DNA of 64,000 nucleotides from Candidatus Terraquivivens tengchongensis (lineage in GTDB: Archaea; Thermoproteota; Nitrososphaeria_A; Caldarchaeales; Wolframiiraptoraceae), in assembly GCA_023261845.1 (NCBI GenBank), contig JALNJZ010000002.1, forward strand, positions 128,001 to 192,000. The letters are read 5' to 3'. Shown here piece after piece: positions 2,907 through 17,604 of this stretch. The notes below the pieces were generated by a model. That model did no database searches, was not told the DNA's origin, and was given only the letters and a program-made list of their open reading frames with translations. Positions within the stretch are counted from its first letter, which is position 1, and each line of letters begins with the position of its first letter. The position numbers and the translations under genes were made by a program.

Positions 2907-5900
2907 ATGCCAAAGCGTGAAGATATACGTAAAATCATGATTATCGGCTCCGGCCCTATTGTGATCGGACAGGCATGTGAGTTTGATTATTCAGGGAGCC
3001 AAGCCTGCAAAGCGCTTAAAGAAGAAGGTTACGAAGTCGTATTGGTAAACTCGAACCCAGCAACGATAATGACGGACCCTGAGATGGCTGATAGAATATA
3101 CATCGAACCGTTGACCCCTGAAGTGGTTGCAGAAATAATTAAAAAAGAACTACCTGACGCTCTGCTCCCAACACTTGGAGGCCAGACCGGCCTGAACATA
3201 GCGGCAGAGCTTGCAGAAAGAGGCATTTTGGATGAATACGGTGTCGAACTCATTGGAGCAAAACTGGAAGCCATAAAGAAGGGAGAGGATCGAATACTTT
3301 TCAAAGAGGCTATGGAAAGAATAGGCCTTCCCGTTCCGAGAAGCTTTCCAGCATACTCCGTTGATGAAGCAGTCGAGATAGCCAATGAGCTAGGATATCC
3401 CGTCATCGTTAGACCTGCATACACCTTGGGCGGGACTGGTGGTGGAGTGGCTTACAACAGGGAAGAGCTGGAGCGGATAGTTGCCAGGGGCTTGACTCAT
3501 AGTCGTATAGGGCAAGTTATAATTGACGAATCCCTTATCGGGTGGAAGGAGTACGAGCTTGAAGTTATGAGGGACTTGGCTGATAACGTCGTAATTATTT
3601 GCTCTATAGAGAACATGGACCCGATGGGCATACATACAGGTGACAGCATAACAGTCGCGCCAGCTCAAACGTTAACAGATAAGGAATACCAAACTTTAAG
3701 GAACGCAGCCATAAAAATCATACGCGAGATAGGTGTCGAAACAGGCGGCTCGAACATACAGTTCGCAGTACATCCAGAAAACGGTCATTTTAAGGTCATA
3801 GAGATAAACCCAAGGGTTTCTAGGAGCTCAGCTTTGGCATCAAAGGCAACGGGATATCCTATAGCGAAGGTAGCTGCGAAACTTGCCATCGGCCTGTTAC
3901 TTGACGAAATTCCAAACGACATAACTAAGAAGACACCAGCATCCTTTGAACCAACGATAGACTACGTGGTAGTTAAAGTTCCTAGATGGCCTTTCGACAA
4001 GTTTCCCGAGGCCGATAAAACGCTAACAACACAGATGAAATCCGTCGGTGAGGTGATGGCAATAGGTCGCACCTTTGAGGAGGCTCTACAGAAGGCAATA
4101 AGGTCTCTGGAGATTGGAAGATACGGTTTGGGAGCCGATGGGAAAGATGAGGAAATGCCGGATGTGAAGACTCTTCGTGATTATCTCAGGATTCCTACAC
4201 ATAAGCGGGTATTTTACATCAGGCATGCAATAAAGCTCGGTATGAGCATCGATGAGATTTACGAGCTTACAAAAATCGATAGATGGTTCATTCGGAAGAT
4301 TAAGAACATAGTTGATATGGAGAACGAACTATCAAAGTATACGATTGAAACTATTCCAAAAGAGGTGCTTCGCAAAGCCAAGAAACTTGGCTTCTCGGAC
4401 AAACAAATAGCGTATCTATTGGGAACTGACGAGCTCACGGTCAGGGAGCTTAGAAAGAGAATGGGTATAATGCCTGTCTATAAGATGGTAGATACATGCG
4501 CGGCAGAATTCGAGGCAGAAACGCCGTACTACTACTCATGCTATGATGATGAGGACGAGATACGGAAGACTGAAAAGAAGAAGGTAGTCATACTTGGTTC
4601 AGGGCCCAACAGAATCGGACAGGGTATTGAATTTGACTATTGCTGCGTACACGCTGTTAAGGCATTAAAAGAGGAGGGTTACGAAGTTATAATGGTGAAC
4701 TGTAACCCTGAAACTGTAAGCACAGACTTCGACATTTCAGACAAGCTGTATTTCGAGCCCCTGACGTTCGAAGACGTGATGAACATAATTGAAAAAGAAC
4801 AGCCTGAAGGTGTCATTGTTCAGCTCGGAGGTCAAACTCCTCTGAACTTAGCTATACCTCTAGAGAAGCAGGGTGTAAAGATTCTTGGAACGACTCCAGA
4901 TAACATAGATAGGGCAGAGGACAGGAAGAGGTTTACTGAAGTTTTAGAAAAACTCGGGATACCCCAGCCACCTTATGGAACAGCCATGAACATAGAAGAG
5001 GCAAAGGAAGTTGCTAGAAAGCTTGGCTATCCTGTGCTGGTGAGACCGTCCTACGTCCTCGGGGGAAGAGCCATGGAAATAGTATACGACGAGGAATCCT
5101 TAATCAAGTATGTGAAAGAAGCGATAAAGGTATCGCCGGAACATCCAGTTTTGATAGACAAGTTCCTAGAAGACGCCATAGAAGCCGAAATCGACGCGAT
5201 TTCTGACGGAGAAAATGTGTACATAGGCGACATCATGGAGCACATAGAGGAGGCAGGAGTACATTCAGGAGATGCTGCATGTGTCCTACCACCTTACAGC
5301 CTTAGCAAAGAGGTGATCGAGACGATGAAGGATTACACGCGCAGAATAGCGAAGGAGCTCCACGTGGTAGGTTTAATAAATGTTCAGTTTGCGATAAAGG
5401 ACGGTAAAGTATACGTGTTTGAGGTCAATCCCCGTGCTTCTAGGACTGTACCATTCGTCAGCAAGGCTACCGGTGTGCCGCTGGCAAAGATTGCAGCGAA
5501 ACTTATGGTAGGTCATAGCCTCAGCGAATTTGGTTTGGGAGAGGAACCGGAGGTAAACCATGTAGCTGTGAAAGAAGCAGTTTTTCCCTTTGCAAAGTTG
5601 CCCGGTGTGGATGTTGTACTTGGACCCGAGATGAAGTCTACAGGTGAGGTAATGGGTATTGACAAAGATTTTGGAATAGCGTATTATAAGGCTGAATTGG
5701 CAGCGGATACGCGCTTACCAACCAAAGGGAACGTCTTTATAAGCGTGAGGGATGACGAAAAGATGCGCATAATACCGGTGGCTAAGAAATTAAAGGAATT
5801 AGGCCTAAACATTTTAGCGACAAAGGGGACCGCGGACGTGTTGATTGCCGCTAACATAGACGTTAAAGTAGTCCCAAAAATTGGCGAAGGTCGTCCAGAC

Positions 5901-6149
5901 ATACTTGACTACATAAAATCCGACAAAATAGACCTAATCATAAACGTCCCGAAAGGTAAGGGTTCCAAAGATGACGAGTTCCAAATAAGAAGGGCTGCAG
6001 TAGATCGTAAAATACCATACATAACGACGGTGGCAGCAGCTCAAGCTGCTGTTAAAGCTATTGAGAAAATAAAGAAGGAAGGCTCCTTTACCGTTAAGCC
6101 ATTGCAAGAATATCACACTAGGCTAATTGTAAAGAAAGCAAAAGCGTAA
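2907..6149 (+). CDS. carB: Carbamoyl-phosphate synthase large subunit
   Basis: [24 protein letters not shown], duplicated ATP-grasp domains, C-terminal MGS-like domain, 1080 aa. Confidence 0.98.
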
Positions 6150-6162
6150 ATTATCTACTTAC

Positions 6163-6882
6163 TTAGGCGGTCCGGTATAACTTTCTGAACGCCTTGTAAA
6201 GTGGTATCGCGATTGCTGTTCCTATTATCGACTGTCCAAGGTTCACGGGTATCTCGGCCAAAGCATAGACGCCCAAGAAGAACTGTTCATAAACGAAGTA
6301 CCCCGAAACCATAAGAAGTCCGCCAAGGAGTAAAGAAAGTATTAACCAGCCTTCGTATCCTTTCTCTTTAACGATGAAGTAAATCGGTGTAGCTACAGCC
6401 GCAGCCGCCAGACCGATCCATGAATAAGGCATGATTGTGAAAATGAATGATTGCGCCCCCCCACCGACCGGGAGTATAGAAACCTCCACTTCGCCGACGA
6501 ATAATGTGATGCCTATCAGAAGTATGAGCACAAAATATCCAGCGACGAGCGTATAGGATGCTACTGCAAGTTGCCATCCGCCCTTTTTCGGAACTTTCTT
6601 AATAAGGTAGCCTACAAGTGCACCTTCTGCTGCTTTTATTAGGAGTGTTGCAGGAGCATAGTAATAGTAGCCTAATGCTAAGTCAGCTAACATGGAACCC
6701 ACGCCGCCAGCAAATGCGGCTATTCCAGGCCCCATCGTAAGTGCCGTAAAGTATATCATCGTTTCACCTAGATTGAAGTAACCTCTGGTGGCTGGTACGT
6801 AAATCGATAGGACCATCGTGGCAACGGCTACCAGCGACGTAAAGACCGCGAGCTTTGCTACGATTATGCTGTAACGTTGCAT
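6163..6882 (-). CDS. ECF transporter S component
   Basis: PATRGYFNLGETMIYFTAL..GGVGSMLADL..APATLLIKA..EIPVNLGQ motifs, polytopic membrane protein; likely start ATG 6882. Confidence 0.8.
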   Translation of the reverse strand: MQRYSIIVAKLAVFTSLVAVATMVLSIYVPATRGYFNLGETMIYFTALTMGPGIAAFAGGVGSMLADLALGYYYYAPATLLIKAAEGALVGYLIKKVPKKGGWQLAVASYTLVAGYFVLILLIGITLFVGEVEVSILPVGGGAQSFIFTIMPYSWIGLAAAAVATPIYFIVKEKGYEGWLILSLLLGGLLMVSGYFVYEQFFLGVYALAEIPVNLGQSIIGTAIAIPLYKAFRKLYRTA

Positions 6883-6934
6883 AGCGAATTTTTGAGAAAC
6901 AAAATATATAAGTTTCAACCTATATATAGGCTAC

Positions 6935-8404
6935 ATGGTATTTAGGCTTTCATGCATAAAATGCGGAAAACATCTGGAAGAGAAAGAAAACCCGATACGT
7001 TGCCCAAGCTGCGGCGGTCAAGTACTCATCGATTACGATTATGAGCAGCTCTCATCCACTGCAAGCAAGGAGAAACTTGCAAAAACACCTCCGAATATGT
7101 GGAAGTACTCATTCCTTCTACCGCTTGTTGAGAACAGCTTTGTCGTATCCTTAGGCGAGGGCGGTACTTTTCTTCAGAAGGCTGAAAGGTTAGGAGAGGA
7201 GCTTGGAATTAAGAATGTGTATCTGAAGAACGAGACAGTAAACCCCACTGGTTCTTTCTTAGACAGGGGGGTTTCCATAGAGGTCACGAGGGCAAAGAAC
7301 AAGGGTTACAGCAGCGTCAAGTGCGCGAGCAGGGGAAACTTAGGTGCTTCAGCAGCTGCATACTCGGCTAAGGCCGGTTTAGGTTGCACGATTTACACGA
7401 CATTAGGCATCGAGTTAGGTAAGCTTTATCAGGCCATTGTTTGCGGTGCTGAGATAAGCTTTGTCAAGACATGCGACAATGCCATCAGAATGCTGGAACG
7501 TCCATATAAAGGAGAGTATGTAATATCCGTAACGAATCCGTTCTTTCTCGAAGGAATAAAAACTACTGGGTACGAGGTTTGCGAACAACTTGGATGGGCC
7601 CCTCCTGAATTTTTTATCGTACCTGTCGGTGAGGGTGGGCACTTATCAATGATATGGAAAGCTCTGAAGGAGCTAAGTTATGTTGGACTTATAAATGATA
7701 CACACTCAAAGATGCTAGGCGTTCAGGCTAAAAGCTGCTCGCCCATAGTTGATGCATTCGCAAAGAACCTTGACAAACCTGCAAAATCTAAGGATTTTGG
7801 GATGACGTTCCACGACATAGCGGTTAGACAACCCATGCTGGGGGAACTTTGCTTGAAAGCTCTGAGAGAATCGAACGGTTATGCCTTGGCAGTATCCGAG
7901 AGGAGAATACTTGAAGCCACGAGGCTTTTAGCCAAGTGCGAAGGAATTTTTGCTGAACCAGCAGCAGCCTCAACTATAGCAGCCCTTAAGATTGCTTTGG
8001 AAGATAGAATAATAGAAAGGTCCGATAAAGTTGTATGCATAATAACGGGTGCAGGTTTAAAGGATCCAGCAGCCGTCAAGAATCTGATAAAGTGCTCGAG
8101 CATGGGTGCTCCTATAACACTCATGCTCACATCCTCATTAGATAGCCGGTTAGGAAAGACGAAGCGCTTAATACTAAAAATTTTACAAAGACGTCCGAAT
8201 CATGGATATCTTTTATGGAAAACTCTTACGCAAGAATTCGGTTTGACAATCACGCTCCCCTCACTGTATCAACATTTACAGGAGCTTATGGTCGCTGGCT
8301 TGGTAACGGTCACACATGAAGGGGGGCCATCAGAAAGGAAAAAGAAGGTTTACGTTCTGACGAAGAAGGGAGAAGCAATTCTATCATCAAAACTCACGAG
8401 ATAA
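6935..8404 (+). CDS. Threonine synthase-like fold-type II PLP protein fused to a C-terminal PadR-type wHTH; PLP lysine replaced by Leu
   Basis: N-terminal CxxC..CPxC, SLGEGGT, NPTGSFLDRG (canonical SFKDRG), EGIKT, EGIFAEPAAA, ITGAGLKD; C-terminal HGYLLWK..SLYQHLQELMVAGLV..RKKKVYVLTKKG. Confidence 0.85.
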   Translation: MVFRLSCIKCGKHLEEKENPIRCPSCGGQVLIDYDYEQLSSTASKEKLAKTPPNMWKYSFLLPLVENSFVVSLGEGGTFLQKAERLGEELGIKNVYLKNETVNPTGSFLDRGVSIEVTRAKNKGYSSVKCASRGNLGASAAAYSAKAGLGCTIYTTLGIELGKLYQAIVCGAEISFVKTCDNAIRMLERPYKGEYVISVTNPFFLEGIKTTGYEVCEQLGWAPPEFFIVPVGEGGHLSMIWKALKELSYVGLINDTHSKMLGVQAKSCSPIVDAFAKNLDKPAKSKDFGMTFHDIAVRQPMLGELCLKALRESNGYALAVSERRILEATRLLAKCEGIFAEPAAASTIAALKIALEDRIIERSDKVVCIITGAGLKDPAAVKNLIKCSSMGAPITLMLTSSLDSRLGKTKRLILKILQRRPNHGYLLWKTLTQEFGLTITLPSLYQHLQELMVAGLVTVTHEGGPSERKKKVYVLTKKGEAILSSKLTR

Positions 8405-8447
8405 GCTTTATCAGATTTATTAACTGCTTTCCGTCGAGAATAACTGC

Positions 8448-8996
8448 ATGAAGATCGTCGTTGCGATAACAGGAGCCTCAGGCGCACCTATAGCTGAGAG
8501 GTTGTTAGAGGTCCTAAAAGCGGGTAAACACAAGGTCTACTTGATTCTTTCTAAGAAGGGTGAGGCACTCGTTCGGGCCGAAGCGAATTTGGAGAAGGTA
8601 AACTCGTATGCGGATAGAATTTTCTGGGAGGACGAACTCGAAGCCCCACTTTCAAGCGGCTCTTTTCCCATCGATGCTATGGTGGTCGTACCATGTTCCA
8701 TGAAGACGCTTGCAGCAATTGCCAACGGTATTGAGGAAAACTTGATCATAAGGGCAGCACTCGTTTCCCTCAAGCAGAAAAGGAAATTGGTCTTAGTGCC
8801 ACGTGAAACGCCTTTAGCCGAGCCGCACATCATCAACATGCTTAAGGCAGTCAGAGCAGGAGCTGTCATTTTACCGCCAGTTCTAACGTTCTACCATTCG
8901 CCGAAGTCCGTCCAAGACCTTATAGACTTTATAGTCGGGAGGGTGCTAGAAATCCTCGAAATCGAGCACAATTTATACAAAAGGTGGGGAGAATGA
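8448..8996 (+). CDS. ubiX: Flavin prenyltransferase UbiX
   Basis: AITGASGA, SSGSF, PCSMKTLAAIANG, LVPRETP, FYHSP. Confidence 0.95.
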   Translation: MKIVVAITGASGAPIAERLLEVLKAGKHKVYLILSKKGEALVRAEANLEKVNSYADRIFWEDELEAPLSSGSFPIDAMVVVPCSMKTLAAIANGIEENLIIRAALVSLKQKRKLVLVPRETPLAEPHIINMLKAVRAGAVILPPVLTFYHSPKSVQDLIDFIVGRVLEILEIEHNLYKRWGE

Positions 8997-10291
8997 GGGA
9001 TTTCCTGAATGAGCTTGAGAAGGAAGGAGAACTCATTAACATCGTAAGGCCGGTCTCGACGAAGTTTGAGGCAGCTGCGATAATGAAGAAGCTCGATGGG
9101 AAGCCCGTACTCTTCCACAAGCTCAAGGAGTGCGAAGGATTTAAATTGGTTGCAAACGTCTGCGGCAATAGGAGAATTCTTGCAAAAGCCCTAGGTGTAA
9201 GTGAAAACGCTATACTCAGGAAGTTGAATGATGCCATAGAAAACCCAAGTAAGGGTGAAATCGTTGAGGATGCACCGTGCCAGCAAGTGGTTGATCGAAA
9301 ACCTGACTTGAGAAAGTTACCTTTCCTGATCTTTGGCGAGCATGATGGTGGGCCCTACGCTACTGCCAGCATAATCATTGCTTATGACAGGGAGTATGGC
9401 TTTAACGCCAGCTTCCATAGATTGATGCTCATAGATAGGAATAAGGTTGTTGCTAGAATACTTCCAAGACATCTTGATGAGTTTATACGTAGAGGCAACA
9501 GAAATGTTGCGATAACTTTCGGGAACCATCCTGCTTTCATGATAGCGGCGGCCGTTAGTTGGAAGATAGGTATTAGCGAGTTGGACATAGCAAACTCGTT
9601 AAGAAAGATGAGGTATGCGAGGTGTGTGACGAATGAACTACTCGTGCCCGCAGACTGTGAGGTTGTGATGGAGGGTGTTGTGACGGATGAATTGGCTGAT
9701 GAGGGTCCAATATTCGACATAACGGGTACGTACGATGTTGTAAGGAAGCAAAGGGTCATCGAGATAGAGTGCGTAACGATGAGACGCGACCCAATATTTC
9801 AAGCAATATTGCTGGCGGGTAGCGAGCACAAAACTTTGATGGGTACGCCGAGGGAGGCGACGATCTATAAGGAGGTCGGGAAGGTCTGCGAGTGCCTAGA
9901 CGTCAGACTAACACCTGGTGGTTGTAAGTGGCTTCACGCTGTCGTAAAGATAAAGAAAAGACATGATGATGACGGTAGAAAAGCTATAGAGGCGGCATTT
10001 AGGGGGCATGGTAGCTTAAAACATGTGATCGTAGTTGACGAGGACATAAATATCGATGACCCGGTTGAGTTAGAATGGGCATTAGCAACGAGGGTGCAAC
10101 TGGACAAGCGCTTGGTGCTTAAGCCTAATGAGTACGGCTCCTCTTTAGACCCATCCGCTGACCAATACACCCGGAAGACATGTAAGGCTGGAATAGATGC
10201 TACGCTGCCTTTGGGTGCTGACTTGAAGCTCTTCAAAAAGGCTACAATACCCGGAGAGGAAAGTATAAAGATTGAAGATTACATAAAGTAG
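8993..10291 (+). CDS. UbiD-family prFMN decarboxylase, probably anhydromevalonate phosphate decarboxylase
   Basis: NASFHRL, EGPIFDITGTYD, KHVIVVDEDINIDD..EWALATRVQ, SSLDPS; operon with ubiX and AcnX subunits. Confidence 0.85.
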   Translation: MRDFLNELEKEGELINIVRPVSTKFEAAAIMKKLDGKPVLFHKLKECEGFKLVANVCGNRRILAKALGVSENAILRKLNDAIENPSKGEIVEDAPCQQVVDRKPDLRKLPFLIFGEHDGGPYATASIIIAYDREYGFNASFHRLMLIDRNKVVARILPRHLDEFIRRGNRNVAITFGNHPAFMIAAAVSWKIGISELDIANSLRKMRYARCVTNELLVPADCEVVMEGVVTDELADEGPIFDITGTYDVVRKQRVIEIECVTMRRDPIFQAILLAGSEHKTLMGTPREATIYKEVGKVCECLDVRLTPGGCKWLHAVVKIKKRHDDDGRKAIEAAFRGHGSLKHVIVVDEDINIDDPVELEWALATRVQLDKRLVLKPNEYGSSLDPSADQYTRKTCKAGIDATLPLGADLKLFKKATIPGEESIKIEDYIK

Positions 10292-10323: not shown

Positions 10324-11505
10324 ATGTATCTTTCAAAAGATGAAGAACGCATGCTGGTTGGCGAATTCGGATACGCCATGCAAAAGGCTATGGAGATACT
10401 CATAGCGCTTGGAAAAATTTACGACGCCGAGAAGCTAATTCCCATAACGAGCGCCCACATATCAGGCGTATCTTATGCCAACGTGGGCGAAGATGGACTA
10501 GAGTTTTTAGAAGAACTCGCATCTGATGGTAAAGTTCTCGTAAAGACGACACTCAATCCTGCAGGCATGGATTTGGACAGATGGAGCTTAATGGGTATTG
10601 ATAGAGAATTCGCGGAGAATCAGCTAAGGGTGATAGACGTCTACAGAAAGATGGGTGTAGAGGTAACCTGCACGTGTACGCCATACCTTGTCAACAACAT
10701 GCCCAAACTAGGCGACCACGTCGCATGGAGTGAAAGTTCGGCAGTAGTTTACGCAAATTCCGTCATAGGTGCTAGGACAAATAGGGAGAGCGGAATGAGC
10801 GCTTTGGCGGCAGCAATAACTGGTAGGACACCTCTTTATGGTCTACACATTAAGGATAACCGTCAACCGACTGTAGAGGTTAGGGTACCGCAGCCAGATG
10901 GAGAGTTCGGGTTTGCTTGTCTCGGTATGGTCATTGGAAGGCTTGTTGGCGATGGTATGCCCTTCATCAAGGGTATGTTTCATGCTGAGCCGGATGAATT
11001 AAAGGCGTTGGGCGCTGCGTTGGCTAGTGTCGGTGGTGTGCCCATGTTTCACATAGAGGGCATAACACCCGAGGCTAATGAATACACAGATCAGTCTATG
11101 GAGAAGCTCGTCGTTACAGAGGCTGACATAATGAGCATCAAGAAGGAGTATACAAGCGAGGCGGATCCGGACTTAATATTTCTTGGATGCCCTCATCTCT
11201 CACTTACAGAGCTTAAGAAGATCGCATCGGTTTTGATTGGAAAAAAGGTCAGAAAAAAACTCTGGTTATGTTGCTCTAAACACGTCAAATTGGAGGCGGA
11301 CAAGTTGGGCATAACACGGGCCTTAGAGGCTGCTGGTGCTACAATTGTATGTGATACTTGCCCGATAGTTGCACCCGTAAGGGATTTGGGCATATCAGTC
11401 GTTGCTACAAACTCGGCTAAAGGAGCATGGTACTCAAGAAACTTAAACAATTTTTCTGTGAAATTGCTCTCGACGGAAGAATGCCTCAGGGAAGCGACCG
11501 AATGA
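10324..11505 (+). CDS. Aconitase X large subunit (putative phosphomevalonate dehydratase large subunit)
   Basis: AHISGVSY, TCTCTPY, AWSESSAVVYANSVIGARTNRE, LGCPH, CDTC, TNSAK. Confidence 0.9.
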   Translation: MYLSKDEERMLVGEFGYAMQKAMEILIALGKIYDAEKLIPITSAHISGVSYANVGEDGLEFLEELASDGKVLVKTTLNPAGMDLDRWSLMGIDREFAENQLRVIDVYRKMGVEVTCTCTPYLVNNMPKLGDHVAWSESSAVVYANSVIGARTNRESGMSALAAAITGRTPLYGLHIKDNRQPTVEVRVPQPDGEFGFACLGMVIGRLVGDGMPFIKGMFHAEPDELKALGAALASVGGVPMFHIEGITPEANEYTDQSMEKLVVTEADIMSIKKEYTSEADPDLIFLGCPHLSLTELKKIASVLIGKKVRKKLWLCCSKHVKLEADKLGITRALEAAGATIVCDTCPIVAPVRDLGISVVATNSAKGAWYSRNLNNFSVKLLSTEECLREATE

Positions 11506-11903
11506 ACGCTATTCTAGAGTTAAGGGGCAGGGTTATAAAAGGAGGAAGGGCCGAAGGCGAAGCATTGGTCTCATCGCAACCGATATCCTTCTACGGAGGC
11601 ATTGACCCTGACACGGGAATAGTTAGGGAAAAGGGGCATGAGTTGGAAGGCAAGAGCGTAGCCGGAAAGGTTTTAATCTTTCCGCATGGGAAAGGTTCAA
11701 CTGTCGGTTCCTACATAATTTACAGGTTGAAGAAAAAGGGCGTAGCACCGAGCGCGATAATAAATCAGAGATGCGAGCCTATAGTTGCCGTTGGTGCGAT
11801 AATAAGTGATATACCTACGATTGATTGTGTTGACATCAGCAATTTTAAGAGTGGTGATTGGATAAAAATAGAGGACGGAAAAATAATTGTAGAACGGCGC
11901 TAG
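11502..11903 (+). CDS. Aconitase X swivel/small subunit (DUF126; putative phosphomevalonate dehydratase small subunit)
   Basis: GEALVS..ISFYGGIDPDTG..GKGSTVGSY; ATG 11502 overlaps the upstream stop (ATGA). Confidence 0.9.
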   Translation: MNAILELRGRVIKGGRAEGEALVSSQPISFYGGIDPDTGIVREKGHELEGKSVAGKVLIFPHGKGSTVGSYIIYRLKKKGVAPSAIINQRCEPIVAVGAIISDIPTIDCVDISNFKSGDWIKIEDGKIIVERR

Positions 11904-13036
11904 AGATCACCTATGAAGAACTCTCTGATCTTTTCAGCTATATAGCGTAAGTCATCAGTGGTTACTTTAGGATGTACTGGCAGGGAGAGCACTTCATCAG
12001 AAGCCTCTTCGGACACAGGTAATGAACCTCTCTGGTAGCCGTAAAGTCCCATGTAGAGTGGGTGCAGATGAACTGGGTTTGGCCAATAAATTGCCGCTTC
12101 TATACCGTTTTCCGTGAGATATTTTTGGAGCATGTCTCTCGACTTTTTAGACCCACCACCCCTAACTCTTATTGTGTAAACATAATGTGATGGTTTGACG
12201 TAGGAAGGAAAAGTTGGGGTGATGATGCTAGGTATGCCTTCGAGGTAATCCTTCAGGACTTCCGCATTCCTTGCCCTAATGGCATTTAGCTTCTCGAGCT
12301 TCGAAAGTTGTACAAGACCGATCGCGGCCTCAAATTCTGTCATCCTATAGTTCAGCCCGGGTATCACGGCCATATGCGCCTCTTCCTGACCATGTGTCCT
12401 GAAGAGCCTACACTTCCTGGCATACTCGGCGTCATTTGTAGTTATAATTCCGCCCTCGCCAGTAGTCATGTTCTTGCTGGCGAAGAAACTAAAGCATCCC
12501 ATATGACCGATGCTGCCGATCTTTTTACCTTTGTAAAGCGCTCCATGTGCCTGGGCAGCATCTTCGATAACTATCAGCCCTTTATCCTCAGCGATCTCCA
12601 TTATAGCATCCATTTCGGCAGGACATCCGTAGACATGCACAGGTATTACCGCCTTCGTGTTATCCGTTATAGCGTCTTGAAACTTTTCAGGATCCATGCA
12701 TAGCGTTTCAGGGTCTACGTCCACGAATACAGGTTTTGCGCCCTGGATAAGTACAACGTTTGCCGTAGCCACAAAAGTCATTGCAGGTATTATGACCTCA
12801 TCACCGTGTCCTATGCCACATGCTGCGAGGGCCGTGTGGAGGGCAGCAGTCCCAGAATTTACAGCAATTGCATACTCAACGCCGATGTATGATGCGAAAC
12901 TCCTCTCAAACTCACTAACTCTTTCACCGCTACCGTGCCATGTAGTGAGCATACCCGTCCTGAGAACCTTAGAAACTTCCTCTATCTCTGCTTCATCGAT
13001 TACAGGTTGGTTTATTCGAATCTTTTTATTGACCAA
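11900..13036 (-). CDS. DegT/DnrJ/EryC1/StrS-family sugar aminotransferase
   Basis: NSGTAALH, IEDAAQAHGA, FSFFASKNMTTGEGG, GLNYRM, LSLPVHP. Confidence 0.93.
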   Translation of the reverse strand: MVNKKIRINQPVIDEAEIEEVSKVLRTGMLTTWHGSGERVSEFERSFASYIGVEYAIAVNSGTAALHTALAACGIGHGDEVIIPAMTFVATANVVLIQGAKPVFVDVDPETLCMDPEKFQDAITDNTKAVIPVHVYGCPAEMDAIMEIAEDKGLIVIEDAAQAHGALYKGKKIGSIGHMGCFSFFASKNMTTGEGGIITTNDAEYARKCRLFRTHGQEEAHMAVIPGLNYRMTEFEAAIGLVQLSKLEKLNAIRARNAEVLKDYLEGIPSIITPTFPSYVKPSHYVYTIRVRGGGSKKSRDMLQKYLTENGIEAAIYWPNPVHLHPLYMGLYGYQRGSLPVSEEASDEVLSLPVHPKVTTDDLRYIAEKIREFFIGDL

Positions 13037-16623: not shown

Positions 16624-17604
16624 TTATGTCTGGAACTCTTCCCTCCAGAAGCGCTCCTCAACATATCTCTCGCCTCCGTCAGGAAAGATGACTACCAACG
16701 TCCCCTCCTCTAACTCTCTGGCTATTTTTATACCGGCGGCGAGCGCGGCACCAGACGATATGCCGACAAGCATCCCTTCGACCCTTGCAAGCTTTTTGAC
16801 CATCTCATAAGCCTCACTCGTGGATACGCTTATACACATGTCGCTGAAGTTTTCATCATATATCTTCGGTTTGATACTCGTAGCCATATGTTTCAACCCC
16901 TCAATTCCATGAAAACCTGAATCTGGTTGAACCTCCACGAGCTTTATACCCGGATTAAATTCTTTTAACCTCCTTCCAACCCCCATGAGCGTTCCAGACG
17001 TCCCAACACCAGCAACAAAATGTGTCAACCTTCCATTAGTTTGCTTTATGATCTCAGGACCCGTCGTTGTGTAGTGAGCCAACCAGTTTGCTTCGTTGTC
17101 ATATTGATTCGCATAAAAGTATGCTTTTGGATCTTGTTCGTATAGTTCATGGGCTTTTTTAATTGCACCGTTTAACCCGTCAACAGGGTTTGTAAATATG
17201 ACTTCGGCTCCATAGGTCTTCATAATAGCGACCTTCTTAGTGTTAGCGTTCGCTGGAACCAGCATCTTGCATCTATAGCCGAGGGTCGCAGCAATCATCG
17301 AATAAGAAATTCCCATGTTGCCGGAAGTGGCATCGAGGATTGTTTTGTCAGGTGTTAGAGCCCCGTCCTTTATGGCACTTAAAATTATGTTCAGCGCAGC
17401 CCTGTCCTTGACGGAGCCTCCTGGGTTGAAAAACTCGAGCTTAGCGTAAATCTTAACACGATCCTTTACACCATATTGCGCTGGTAATTTTTCAATCCTA
17501 CAAAGTGGTGTATTGCCGACGAGTTTTAGAGGTTTATCATAAACCCTAAGATGATGCGTATTGTAATCGGCTTGGACCCATGAATTGAGTCGTTTAACCG
17601 ACAC
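16624..17604 (-). CDS. Cysteine synthase (CysM-like, PLP-dependent)
   Basis: VGNTPL, KLEFFNPGGSVKDR, DATSGN, GVGTSGT, IEGLKHM, GISSGA, FPDGGERY. Confidence 0.9.
   Translation of the reverse strand: MSVKRLNSWVQADYNTHHLRVYDKPLKLVGNTPLCRIEKLPAQYGVKDRVKIYAKLEFFNPGGSVKDRAALNIILSAIKDGALTPDKTILDATSGNMGISYSMIAATLGYRCKMLVPANANTKKVAIMKTYGAEVIFTNPVDGLNGAIKKAHELYEQDPKAYFYANQYDNEANWLAHYTTTGPEIIKQTNGRLTHFVAGVGTSGTLMGVGRRLKEFNPGIKLVEVQPDSGFHGIEGLKHMATSIKPKIYDENFSDMCISVSTSEAYEMVKKLARVEGMLVGISSGAALAAGIKIARELEEGTLVVIFPDGGERYVEERFWREEFQT

Follow-up and report, generated by a model that had tools for sequence, protein, structure and literature searches.

What might be the task of a protein that has the fold of a threonine synthase (ThrC), does not have the lysine to which the cofactor of that enzyme is attached, and carries a DNA-binding domain at its C terminus? 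The question is raised by a gene at positions 6935 to 8404 (+) of a 64,000-nucleotide stretch of the Candidatus Terraquivivens tengchongensis genome (contig JALNJZ010000002.1, positions 128,001 to 192,000; hereafter, the window). We examined the open reading frames (ORFs) of the window with their translations and searched the 1.22-Mb genome, which is 99.4% complete. A previous, sequence-only reading had taken the product for a pseudo-enzyme reused as a one-component regulator, responding to pyridoxal 5'-phosphate (PLP) or another vitamin B6 vitamer, to phosphohomoserine or to threonine. On the basis of the comparisons reported below, we consider it probable that this fusion is a B6- or PLP-sensing regulator of B6 uptake, which would also regulate its own gene.

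The frame at 6935..8404 is the sole long one at that place, and its product of 489 amino acids comprises a zinc ribbon, a PLP fold like that of ThrC and, at the C terminus, a winged helix of the PadR type, as indicated by Pfam and by alignments with PDB entries. The N-terminal zinc ribbon (6953..7012, +) is a weak Pfam match (DUF7129, residues 7 to 30) with four cysteines; across an alignment of 53 fusions, C7, C10 and C26 never vary, and conservation of C23 is 90% or more. Residues 71 to 372 (7145..8050, +) form the fold-type II (PALP) domain (E 6e-63, 213 bits), the proposed ligand sensor, while residues 413 to 483 (8171..8383, +) form a PadR-type winged helix-turn-helix (wHTH), which matches positions 1 to 73 of the 75 in PF03551 with 44.6 bits (E 1.5e-11; cut-off, 27). 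The recognition-helix motif is LYQHL in the window protein and (V/I)YQHL in most relatives; in an alignment of 43 C termini of this domain, Y, H and G do not vary, and Q and L are at least 90% conserved. An AlphaFold2 model built from 53 family members (mean predicted local distance difference test score, 90.1; predicted template modeling score, 0.81) presents a low-confidence linker at about residues 380 to 410 and helices with a two-strand wing at residues 408 to 485. No GntR or aminotransferase class I/II match occurs among the Pfam domains listed for the fusion.

In the PALP domain, the motif NPTGSFLDRG places a leucine (Leu109, codon TTA, 7259..7261, +) where, in the HMMER alignments, the threonine synthases 2zsj, 6cgq and 2d1f have the Schiff-base lysine of NPTGSFKDRG. 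The sequence-only reading had noticed this replacement, together with the retention of the other fold motifs and a complete PadR-like wHTH, and both observations are confirmed. Leu109 is neither an error nor a chance event, since NPTGSFLDRG is found in all six closest orthologues (79 to 99% identity) and the lysine is also missing from the motif in the best hits beyond them. In a set consisting of the query and its 120 best hits from a collection of 5.8 billion proteins (121 proteins), all 120 hits have both PALP and PadR, and the source databases, where they give a name, call them threonine synthase; lysine occurs at the motif in none of the 118 motif-bearing proteins, which have I, L, V, M, T, S or N, the residue being not resolvable by pattern matching in the other 3 of the 121. 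A second alignment was made with the query and the 150 best cluster representatives of an exhaustive HMMER search (151 rows). Here, the winged helix is borne by 73 rows, 69 of which have no lysine, 2 have it, and 2 are truncated at the site, so that the loss concerns 69 of 71 fused representatives; the residues in its place are L (21 rows), I (20), V (8), R (7), M (5), T (4) and N, A, F and S (one each). On the contrary, 75 of the 78 rows without the winged helix keep the lysine; as for the other three, two are short (306 and 362 amino acids) and the third (519 amino acids) is nearly unaligned across the wHTH region. In this alignment of homologous fusions, a check which the sequence-only reading had proposed, the loss of the lysine tracks the fusion, with a replacement residue that varies.

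We then considered as canonical the columns whose conservation reaches 80% or more among the 75 lysine-bearing unfused proteins and as lost those with less than 30% conservation in the fusions: K109 is the only such column that is lost. By the same comparison, N103, P104, T105, F108, D110, R111, G134, N135, G232, G234, T371, G372, G374 and K376 are kept in at least 86% of the fusions. Moreover, no column of the enzyme part has lysine in at least 40% of the fusions and in less than 25% of the canonical proteins, from which it follows that there is no compensating lysine at the family level. A quick, unrooted FastTree of the enzyme-like part (140 rows) leaves all unfused lysine-bearing proteins on one side of one branch (support 92) and gathers the fusions in a main clade of 61 rows (support 99) and a smaller one of 10 rows (support 98), which holds the arginine-type proteins and the two lysine-bearing fusions. 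This topology, quick and unrooted as the tree is, would be compatible with a single origin of the fusion followed by the loss of the lysine. The two winged-helix-bearing proteins that retain the lysine, P0168 (NPTSSFKDRS) and P0187 (NPTNSFKDRA), sit in this small clade, which otherwise mostly has arginine at that site, and they may represent intermediates between enzyme and sensor.

The relationship with ThrC is evident both in sequence, the best PDB matches being 2zsj (E 4e-58), 6cgq and 2d1f, and in the model, for which the best Foldseek matches in the PDB are the same threonine synthases (target-normalised TM score, 0.85 to 0.88). Identity to the solved enzymes (2zsj, 6cgq, 2d1f and 1uim) is 34 to 36%. 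The scores against the threonine synthase profiles are divided: TIGR00260 is above its cut-off (191 bits versus 167.1), whereas PRK08197 (299 versus 303) and PRK05638 (271.2 versus 421) are below theirs. The last of these, a profile of 442 positions with the title of threonine synthase, aligns with residues 5 to 484 of the fusion, wHTH included. A further difference from ThrC concerns the motif NPxR(I/L)EGQKT, whose arginine, which we take to bind the phosphate of the substrate, is present in 2zsj, 6cgq, 2d1f and the ThrC of the same genome and is replaced by Phe204 in the window fusion and by hydrophobic residues (F, L, Y or I) across the fusion family. Hence, the fusion lacks two features that define ThrC, the Schiff-base lysine and the motif arginine, and it carries an additional C-terminal wHTH.

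The search of the genome for a canonical thrC, also proposed by the sequence-only reading, found one on contig C11, encoding 409 amino acids (325.6 bits) with the motifs NPTGSFKDRG, ASTGNTAAS, NPWRLEGQKT and PVGNCGN and a zinc ribbon of the same type as that of the fusion, which is therefore a paralogue alongside a normal ThrC. Directly upstream of this thrC (L001, 2640 to 3374, −), we observed a gene for a 245-amino-acid fusion of a MarR-like winged helix with a cytidine triphosphate (CTP)-dependent riboflavin kinase, presumably of the RbkR type, which on its domain content is a second enzyme-derived regulator of this genome. With the loss of the lysine tracking the fusion, a canonical thrC elsewhere and no compensating lysine, the view of a pseudo-enzyme reused as a one-component regulator is well supported by the comparative evidence.

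As to what is regulated, the fusion gene is separated by only 52 bp (6883 to 6934), as the sequence-only reading had stated, from a divergent gene (6163..6882, −) for the S-component of an energy-coupling factor (ECF) transporter (PF07155, 86.8 bits; cut-off, 26.7), the proposed importer of a B6 vitamer and main target; its start, the ATG at 6882 on the opposite strand, is conserved in relatives. NCBIfam matches of this protein are weak and below threshold, and an Atlas search returned generic names. According to PMC9997740, B6 transporters are poorly known in prokaryotes, and PF07155/COG4720 comprises PdxU and PdxU2/HmpT, two of only three that have been characterised. Two more PF07155-type S-component genes are located at C9:76361-76732 and C12:167763-168137, the former some 1.6 kb away from a gene for EcfT (CbiQ; C9:74161-74751); the genome has two EcfT genes.

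Relatives of the fusion are present in at least 594 species genomes, and we compared their best 80 loci, which span Aigarchaeota, Bathyarchaeia, Nitrososphaerales, Methanomethylicota and Thor-, Hermod-, Prometh-, Odin- and Jord-archaeota, the closest (84%) being from Candidatus Terraquivivens (Aigarchaeota). By tblastn, 59 of the 80 loci have a homologue of the window's S-component no more than 600 bp away from the fusion gene, and their lineages cover Aigarchaeota, Bathyarchaeia, Nitrososphaeria and Asgard; with the limit set at 3 kb, the number rises to 61. ORF clustering placed the S-component gene downstream on the same strand (29 loci), divergently (17) or convergently (10); in the window's own family, it is divergent in 12 of 12 loci, at 54 to 216 bp from the fusion gene. 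The S-component is also adjacent in 9 of 13 further loci from weaker-scoring subfamilies and, in the arginine-type clade, is often followed by a double ATP-binding cassette (ABC) ATPase.

In ten other genomes, the gene near that of the fusion is pdxS, with or without pdxT. Pfam identified pdxS-pdxT (L073) or pdxS (L108) following the fusion gene on the same strand and pdxS-pdxT divergent from it (L088 and L092), while coordinates indicated a divergent pdxS in G078, G125 and G132 and, in Asgard genomes, pdxS on the same strand (G358), divergent (G371) or about 1.3 kb away (G438). Locus L073 is filed under a Limnocylindrales bacterium, yet it has the archaeal-type fusion with pdxS-pdxT, and its contig may be mis-binned or may reflect gene transfer. 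In 23 loci, the S-component gene is followed by one of the PurM superfamily (AIRS and AIRS_C; HypE/ThiL-like, e.g., L030), which scores below all equivalog cut-offs and whose product is a candidate for an adenosine triphosphate (ATP)-dependent enzyme salvaging the imported compound. Two PurM-like homologues, 43 to 47% identical, are encoded elsewhere in the window's genome (C5:116884-117882 and C6:113272-114261).

The B6 status of the genome is consistent with a need for uptake. No match to PdxS, PdxT or PdxJ was found in the 1.22 Mb, and PMC9997740 reports for Archaea the PdxS/T route only for PLP synthesis. Since the genome also encodes PLP enzymes (DegT, ThrC and a further PALP protein), one would expect the organism to draw B6 from outside by means of an importer. 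Regarding B6 salvage kinases, the sole Phos_pyr_kin match above the Pfam cut-off is a ThiD-type fusion of 450 amino acids, a second match being weak; one small PNPOx_N protein is present.

We extended this comparison to the window's phylum, of which 351 genomes with a completeness of 80% or more were searched with the full-length family alignment, PF01680 and the C-terminal winged-helix alignment, considering as fusion-positive those with a winged-helix match in an open frame 430 or more amino acids long or in a cut frame with E not above 1e-20. At least 100 of the 351 genomes are fusion-positive, including all 85 with full-length matches and excluding the cut match of G110. Among the matches listed, and with kinship not corrected for, PdxS occurs in 15 of the 100 fusion-positive genomes versus 153 of the 251 others (odds ratio, 0.11). 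In the window's own family, the fusion occurs without PdxS in genera g1 (7 genomes, including the window's), g2 (5) and g4 (1), while in genus g3, where the fusion is absent, 7 of 9 genomes have PdxS. Among the matches listed for 151 Asgard genomes, the association is weaker (PdxS in 10 of 85 fusion-positive genomes versus 17 of 66 others). Where both genes occur, pdxS adjoins the fusion gene in 6 of the 15 genomes of the phylum and is beside or near it in 3 of the 10 Asgard genomes. PdxS was not found in 183 of the 351 genomes of the phylum, nor in 124 of the 151 Asgard genomes (at least 80% complete), and it is possible to hypothesize that B6 dependence may be common in these Thermoproteota and Asgard lineages.

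B6 is the best-supported ligand class, because the fusion gene has either a PdxU-family importer or pdxS(T) as its neighbour, PdxS, PdxT and PdxJ were not detected in this genome, and the fusion is negatively associated with PdxS. Among the ligands envisaged by the sequence-only reading, only PLP or another B6 vitamer gains ground, and phosphohomoserine becomes less likely because the arginine of NPxR(I/L)EGQKT is Phe204 here and hydrophobic family-wide.

The promoter region shared by the two genes contains a perfect 12-bp palindrome, CCTATATATAGG (6919..6930), which ends 4 nt before the regulator ATG and is proposed to be the operator, and the arrangement GAAAC-N11-GTTTC (6896..6916) around the TATA-like element ATATATAA. 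From the S-component side, the order is GAAAC (6896 to 6900), ATATATAA (6904 to 6911), GTTTC (6912 to 6916), CCTATATATAGG and the regulator ATG at 6935; in relatives, an element ATATATAAG occurs about 7 nt upstream of the palindrome. The presence of one TATA box with two arms resembling the transcription factor B recognition element (BRE) suggests a bidirectional promoter about 26 to 28 nt from both start codons, which would give leaderless transcripts in both directions. The window has one copy of CCTATATATAGG, where chance would give 0.11, and the genome has no other. We also scanned for the strict form CCTA[TCA]AT[AG]TAGG in the 100 nt upstream of each fusion gene at the 93 distinct loci with upstream sequence: 27 of them have it (27 matches in 9,287 nt), and the single match elsewhere in about 1.10 Mb is itself situated roughly 106 nt upstream of such a gene. 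Among the 27 loci are those of Aigarchaeota, a Bathyarchaeon, Nitrososphaerota and Thor-, Hermod- and Prometh-archaeota, and the palindrome is kept in four loci (L088 to L091) where pdxS takes the place of the importer as the divergent gene. A wider regulon was not apparent in the genome, which has four one-mismatch copies of the palindrome versus three of the reversed control pattern; two of these copies fall within ORFs, and no B6-related gene adjoins any of the four.

Taken together, these elements allow us to propose a mechanism in which the ThrC-like domain, unable to form the Schiff base with PLP, would bind a B6 vitamer, most likely PLP itself, in a non-covalent manner, and the PadR winged helix, presumably dimeric in view of the palindrome, would bind CCTATATATAGG in the 52-bp region. 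The likely targets are thus the S-component gene and the regulator's own gene. Binding between the TATA element and the regulator start would repress the latter. For the importer, the palindrome is 37 to 48 nt upstream of the S-component start, just past BRE/TATA, and archaeal factors bound just upstream of BRE/TATA can act either way, so the importer could be either activated or repressed. In turn, the organism, for which PdxS, PdxT and PdxJ were not detected, would receive its B6 through the importer.

Several observations weigh against this proposal. The ligand, the DNA binding and the regulation are all predicted from sequence, and the hydrophobic residue beside C4' may suit a vitamer other than the aldehyde form. 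Since PF07155 also includes riboflavin- and HMP-type components, the substrate of the importer is deduced from context only, and the PurM/ThiL-like companion in 23 loci could point to another phosphorylated cofactor. By tblastn, 21 of the 80 loci have no S-component within 600 bp; two of them have a match 1.3 to 2.9 kb away, 8 of the other 19 are cut by contig ends, and in L031 a divergent PF07155 gene with an ABC ATPase was detected by Pfam only. The palindrome is present in only 27 of the 93 loci, and no 4- or 5-mer inverted repeat with a spacer of 0 to 10 nt recurs upstream in 8 or more of 59 other loci. Genus g5 (10 genomes) has neither PdxS nor the fusion, 16 genomes (9 of the window's phylum and 7 Asgard) hold both genes without having them side by side, and the cross-tabulation depends on our own classification of the listed matches, so that weaker fusions were possibly missed, and treats related genomes that are not independent.

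Downstream of the regulator, the window encodes, according to Pfam, a UbiX-type flavoprotein (8448-8996), a UbiD family protein (8984-10291) and the large (10324-11505) and swivel (11427-11903) subunits of AcnX, a set which we take to fit the archaeal anhydromevalonate route of the mevalonate pathway. The fusion gene does stand directly upstream of this operon, which the sequence-only reading had listed as a candidate target together with the S-component gene. The latter part of that suggestion is favoured by the adjacency described above, whereas the operon was rejected as a conserved target: UbiX is near only 8 of the 80 anchors, being directly downstream in 3, its adjacency is confined to close relatives, and no palindrome was found in 8405-8447. 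The mevalonate operon is thus probably not a target.

Different explanations for the same locus have to be weighed against a B6-sensing regulator. It is conceivable, even if rather unlikely, that the fusion does regulate the adjacent S-component gene and senses another cofactor or precursor, such as hydroxymethylpyrimidine phosphate (HMP-P) or thiamine phosphate, which resemble PLP in shape, or a flavin. PF07155 holds riboflavin-type and HmpT-type components (as its Pfam name and PMC9997740 indicate), and such a view could appeal to the PurM/ThiL/HypE-like gene following the S-component in 23 loci, to a flavin-reductase-like gene near the fusion in 9 loci and to the presence downstream in the window of UbiX, a flavin mononucleotide (FMN) enzyme. 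However, pdxS, alone or together with pdxT, adjoins the fusion gene in ten genomes, the neighbours scanned include no gene for the biosynthesis of thiamine or riboflavin, and the presence of the fusion is negatively associated with PdxS; for flavins, the genome has the separate wHTH-riboflavin kinase fusion, besides two other PF07155 genes.

We give still less credit to a sensor of threonine, O-phosphohomoserine or another amino acid, controlling amino acid transport or metabolism or the downstream mevalonate-pathway genes. The ThrC ancestry of the sensor domain would fit such a role, as would the divergent APC-type permease found at the fusion gene, with no adjacent S-component, in L021 and L059, the canonical ThrC-like gene two genes away in L048 and L081, and one RNA read pair across 8033-8460, compatible with read-through into ubiX. 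Nevertheless, the arginine of NPxR(I/L)EGQKT is replaced in the fusions, the main neighbours are a vitamin-type S-component and pdxS(T), and the UbiX adjacency and the palindrome search speak against the mevalonate genes, as reported above. Least probable of all, in our opinion, is that the protein is still an enzyme, either independent of the lysine or acting on a new substrate, which merely bears a DNA-binding tail: the TIGR00260 score, the conservation of most fold residues and the lysine of P0168 and P0187 are in line with an enzyme, while the absence of the Schiff-base lysine from 69 of 71 fused representatives, where the replacement is mostly aliphatic, the lack of a conserved compensating lysine, the normal ThrC of the genome and the PRK08197 and PRK05638 scores below cut-off argue against it.

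If the fusion is indeed a B6-sensing regulator, bacterial PdxR would be the closest known system to it, by resemblance in function and not by membership. PdxR belongs to the MocR regulators, which keep the Schiff-base lysine and join an N-terminal GntR winged helix to a fold-type I aminotransferase-like domain. Both PdxR and the fusion combine a winged helix with a sensor derived from a PLP enzyme, present a divergent target arrangement and a site placed for repressing their own gene, and have a similar predicted regulon content, pdxST and a PdxU-type importer, which for the fusion is deduced by gene neighbourhood only. The two are not homologous, the fusion having a fold-type II sensor without the Schiff-base lysine, a PadR domain at the C terminus and a zinc ribbon. 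In PMC5320631, bacterial PdxR regulons are reported to include pdxST, pdxK and pdxU, and MocR regulators to be absent from Archaea.

With the PadR family, whose typical members are small, stand-alone proteins, the fusion shares the PF03551 winged helix, above cut-off, and a palindromic candidate operator in the regulator's own promoter; different from them, its PadR domain is the C-terminal module of a 489-amino-acid protein with a separate enzyme-like sensor. Archaeal enzyme-derived vitamin regulators are represented by RbkR (wHTH and CTP-dependent riboflavin kinase) and ThiR (DNA-binding domain and ThiN domain), in which, as in the fusion, the fold of a pathway enzyme joined to a DNA-binding domain serves as cofactor sensor, although the fold, the cofactor and the DNA-binding domain are all different. 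In the literature searched, which did not extend to the supplementary tables of PMC9997740 and PMC5320631, we found no description of this fusion and none of a B6-responsive archaeal regulator.

The other genes of the window mentioned in the analysis are ordinary ones, namely, those for the large subunit of carbamoyl-phosphate synthase (2907-6149), a DegT-family PLP aminotransferase (11900-13036, −) and a second PALP enzyme (16624-17604, −). In one metatranscriptome, contigs cover short stretches of the S-component gene (6656-6818), of the fusion gene (7372-7623) and of ubiX; one run yielded just one raw read pair and two others yielded none, data which are too thin to establish transcription or a start site.

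With somewhat less confidence than for the window protein alone, we lean towards the view that the whole family is the missing archaeal B6 regulator, in which a lysine-less ThrC fold would bind PLP non-covalently and the PadR domain would act on a CCTATATATAGG-type operator, controlling import or pdxST according to the lineage. If this is true, it would represent a second case, independent of the first, in which a PLP-enzyme fold was recruited to sense a cofactor, and would correct a systematic mis-annotation, the name "threonine synthase" being attached in hundreds of genomes to a gene that cannot be one. The fusion would mark the archaeal B6 importer, and the PurM-like neighbour would become a candidate for the B6 salvage kinase. 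Furthermore, it would make the B6 homeostasis of Thermoproteota and Asgard archaea accessible to testing and predict B6 dependence for many uncultured lineages, which would be of use when culture media are designed.

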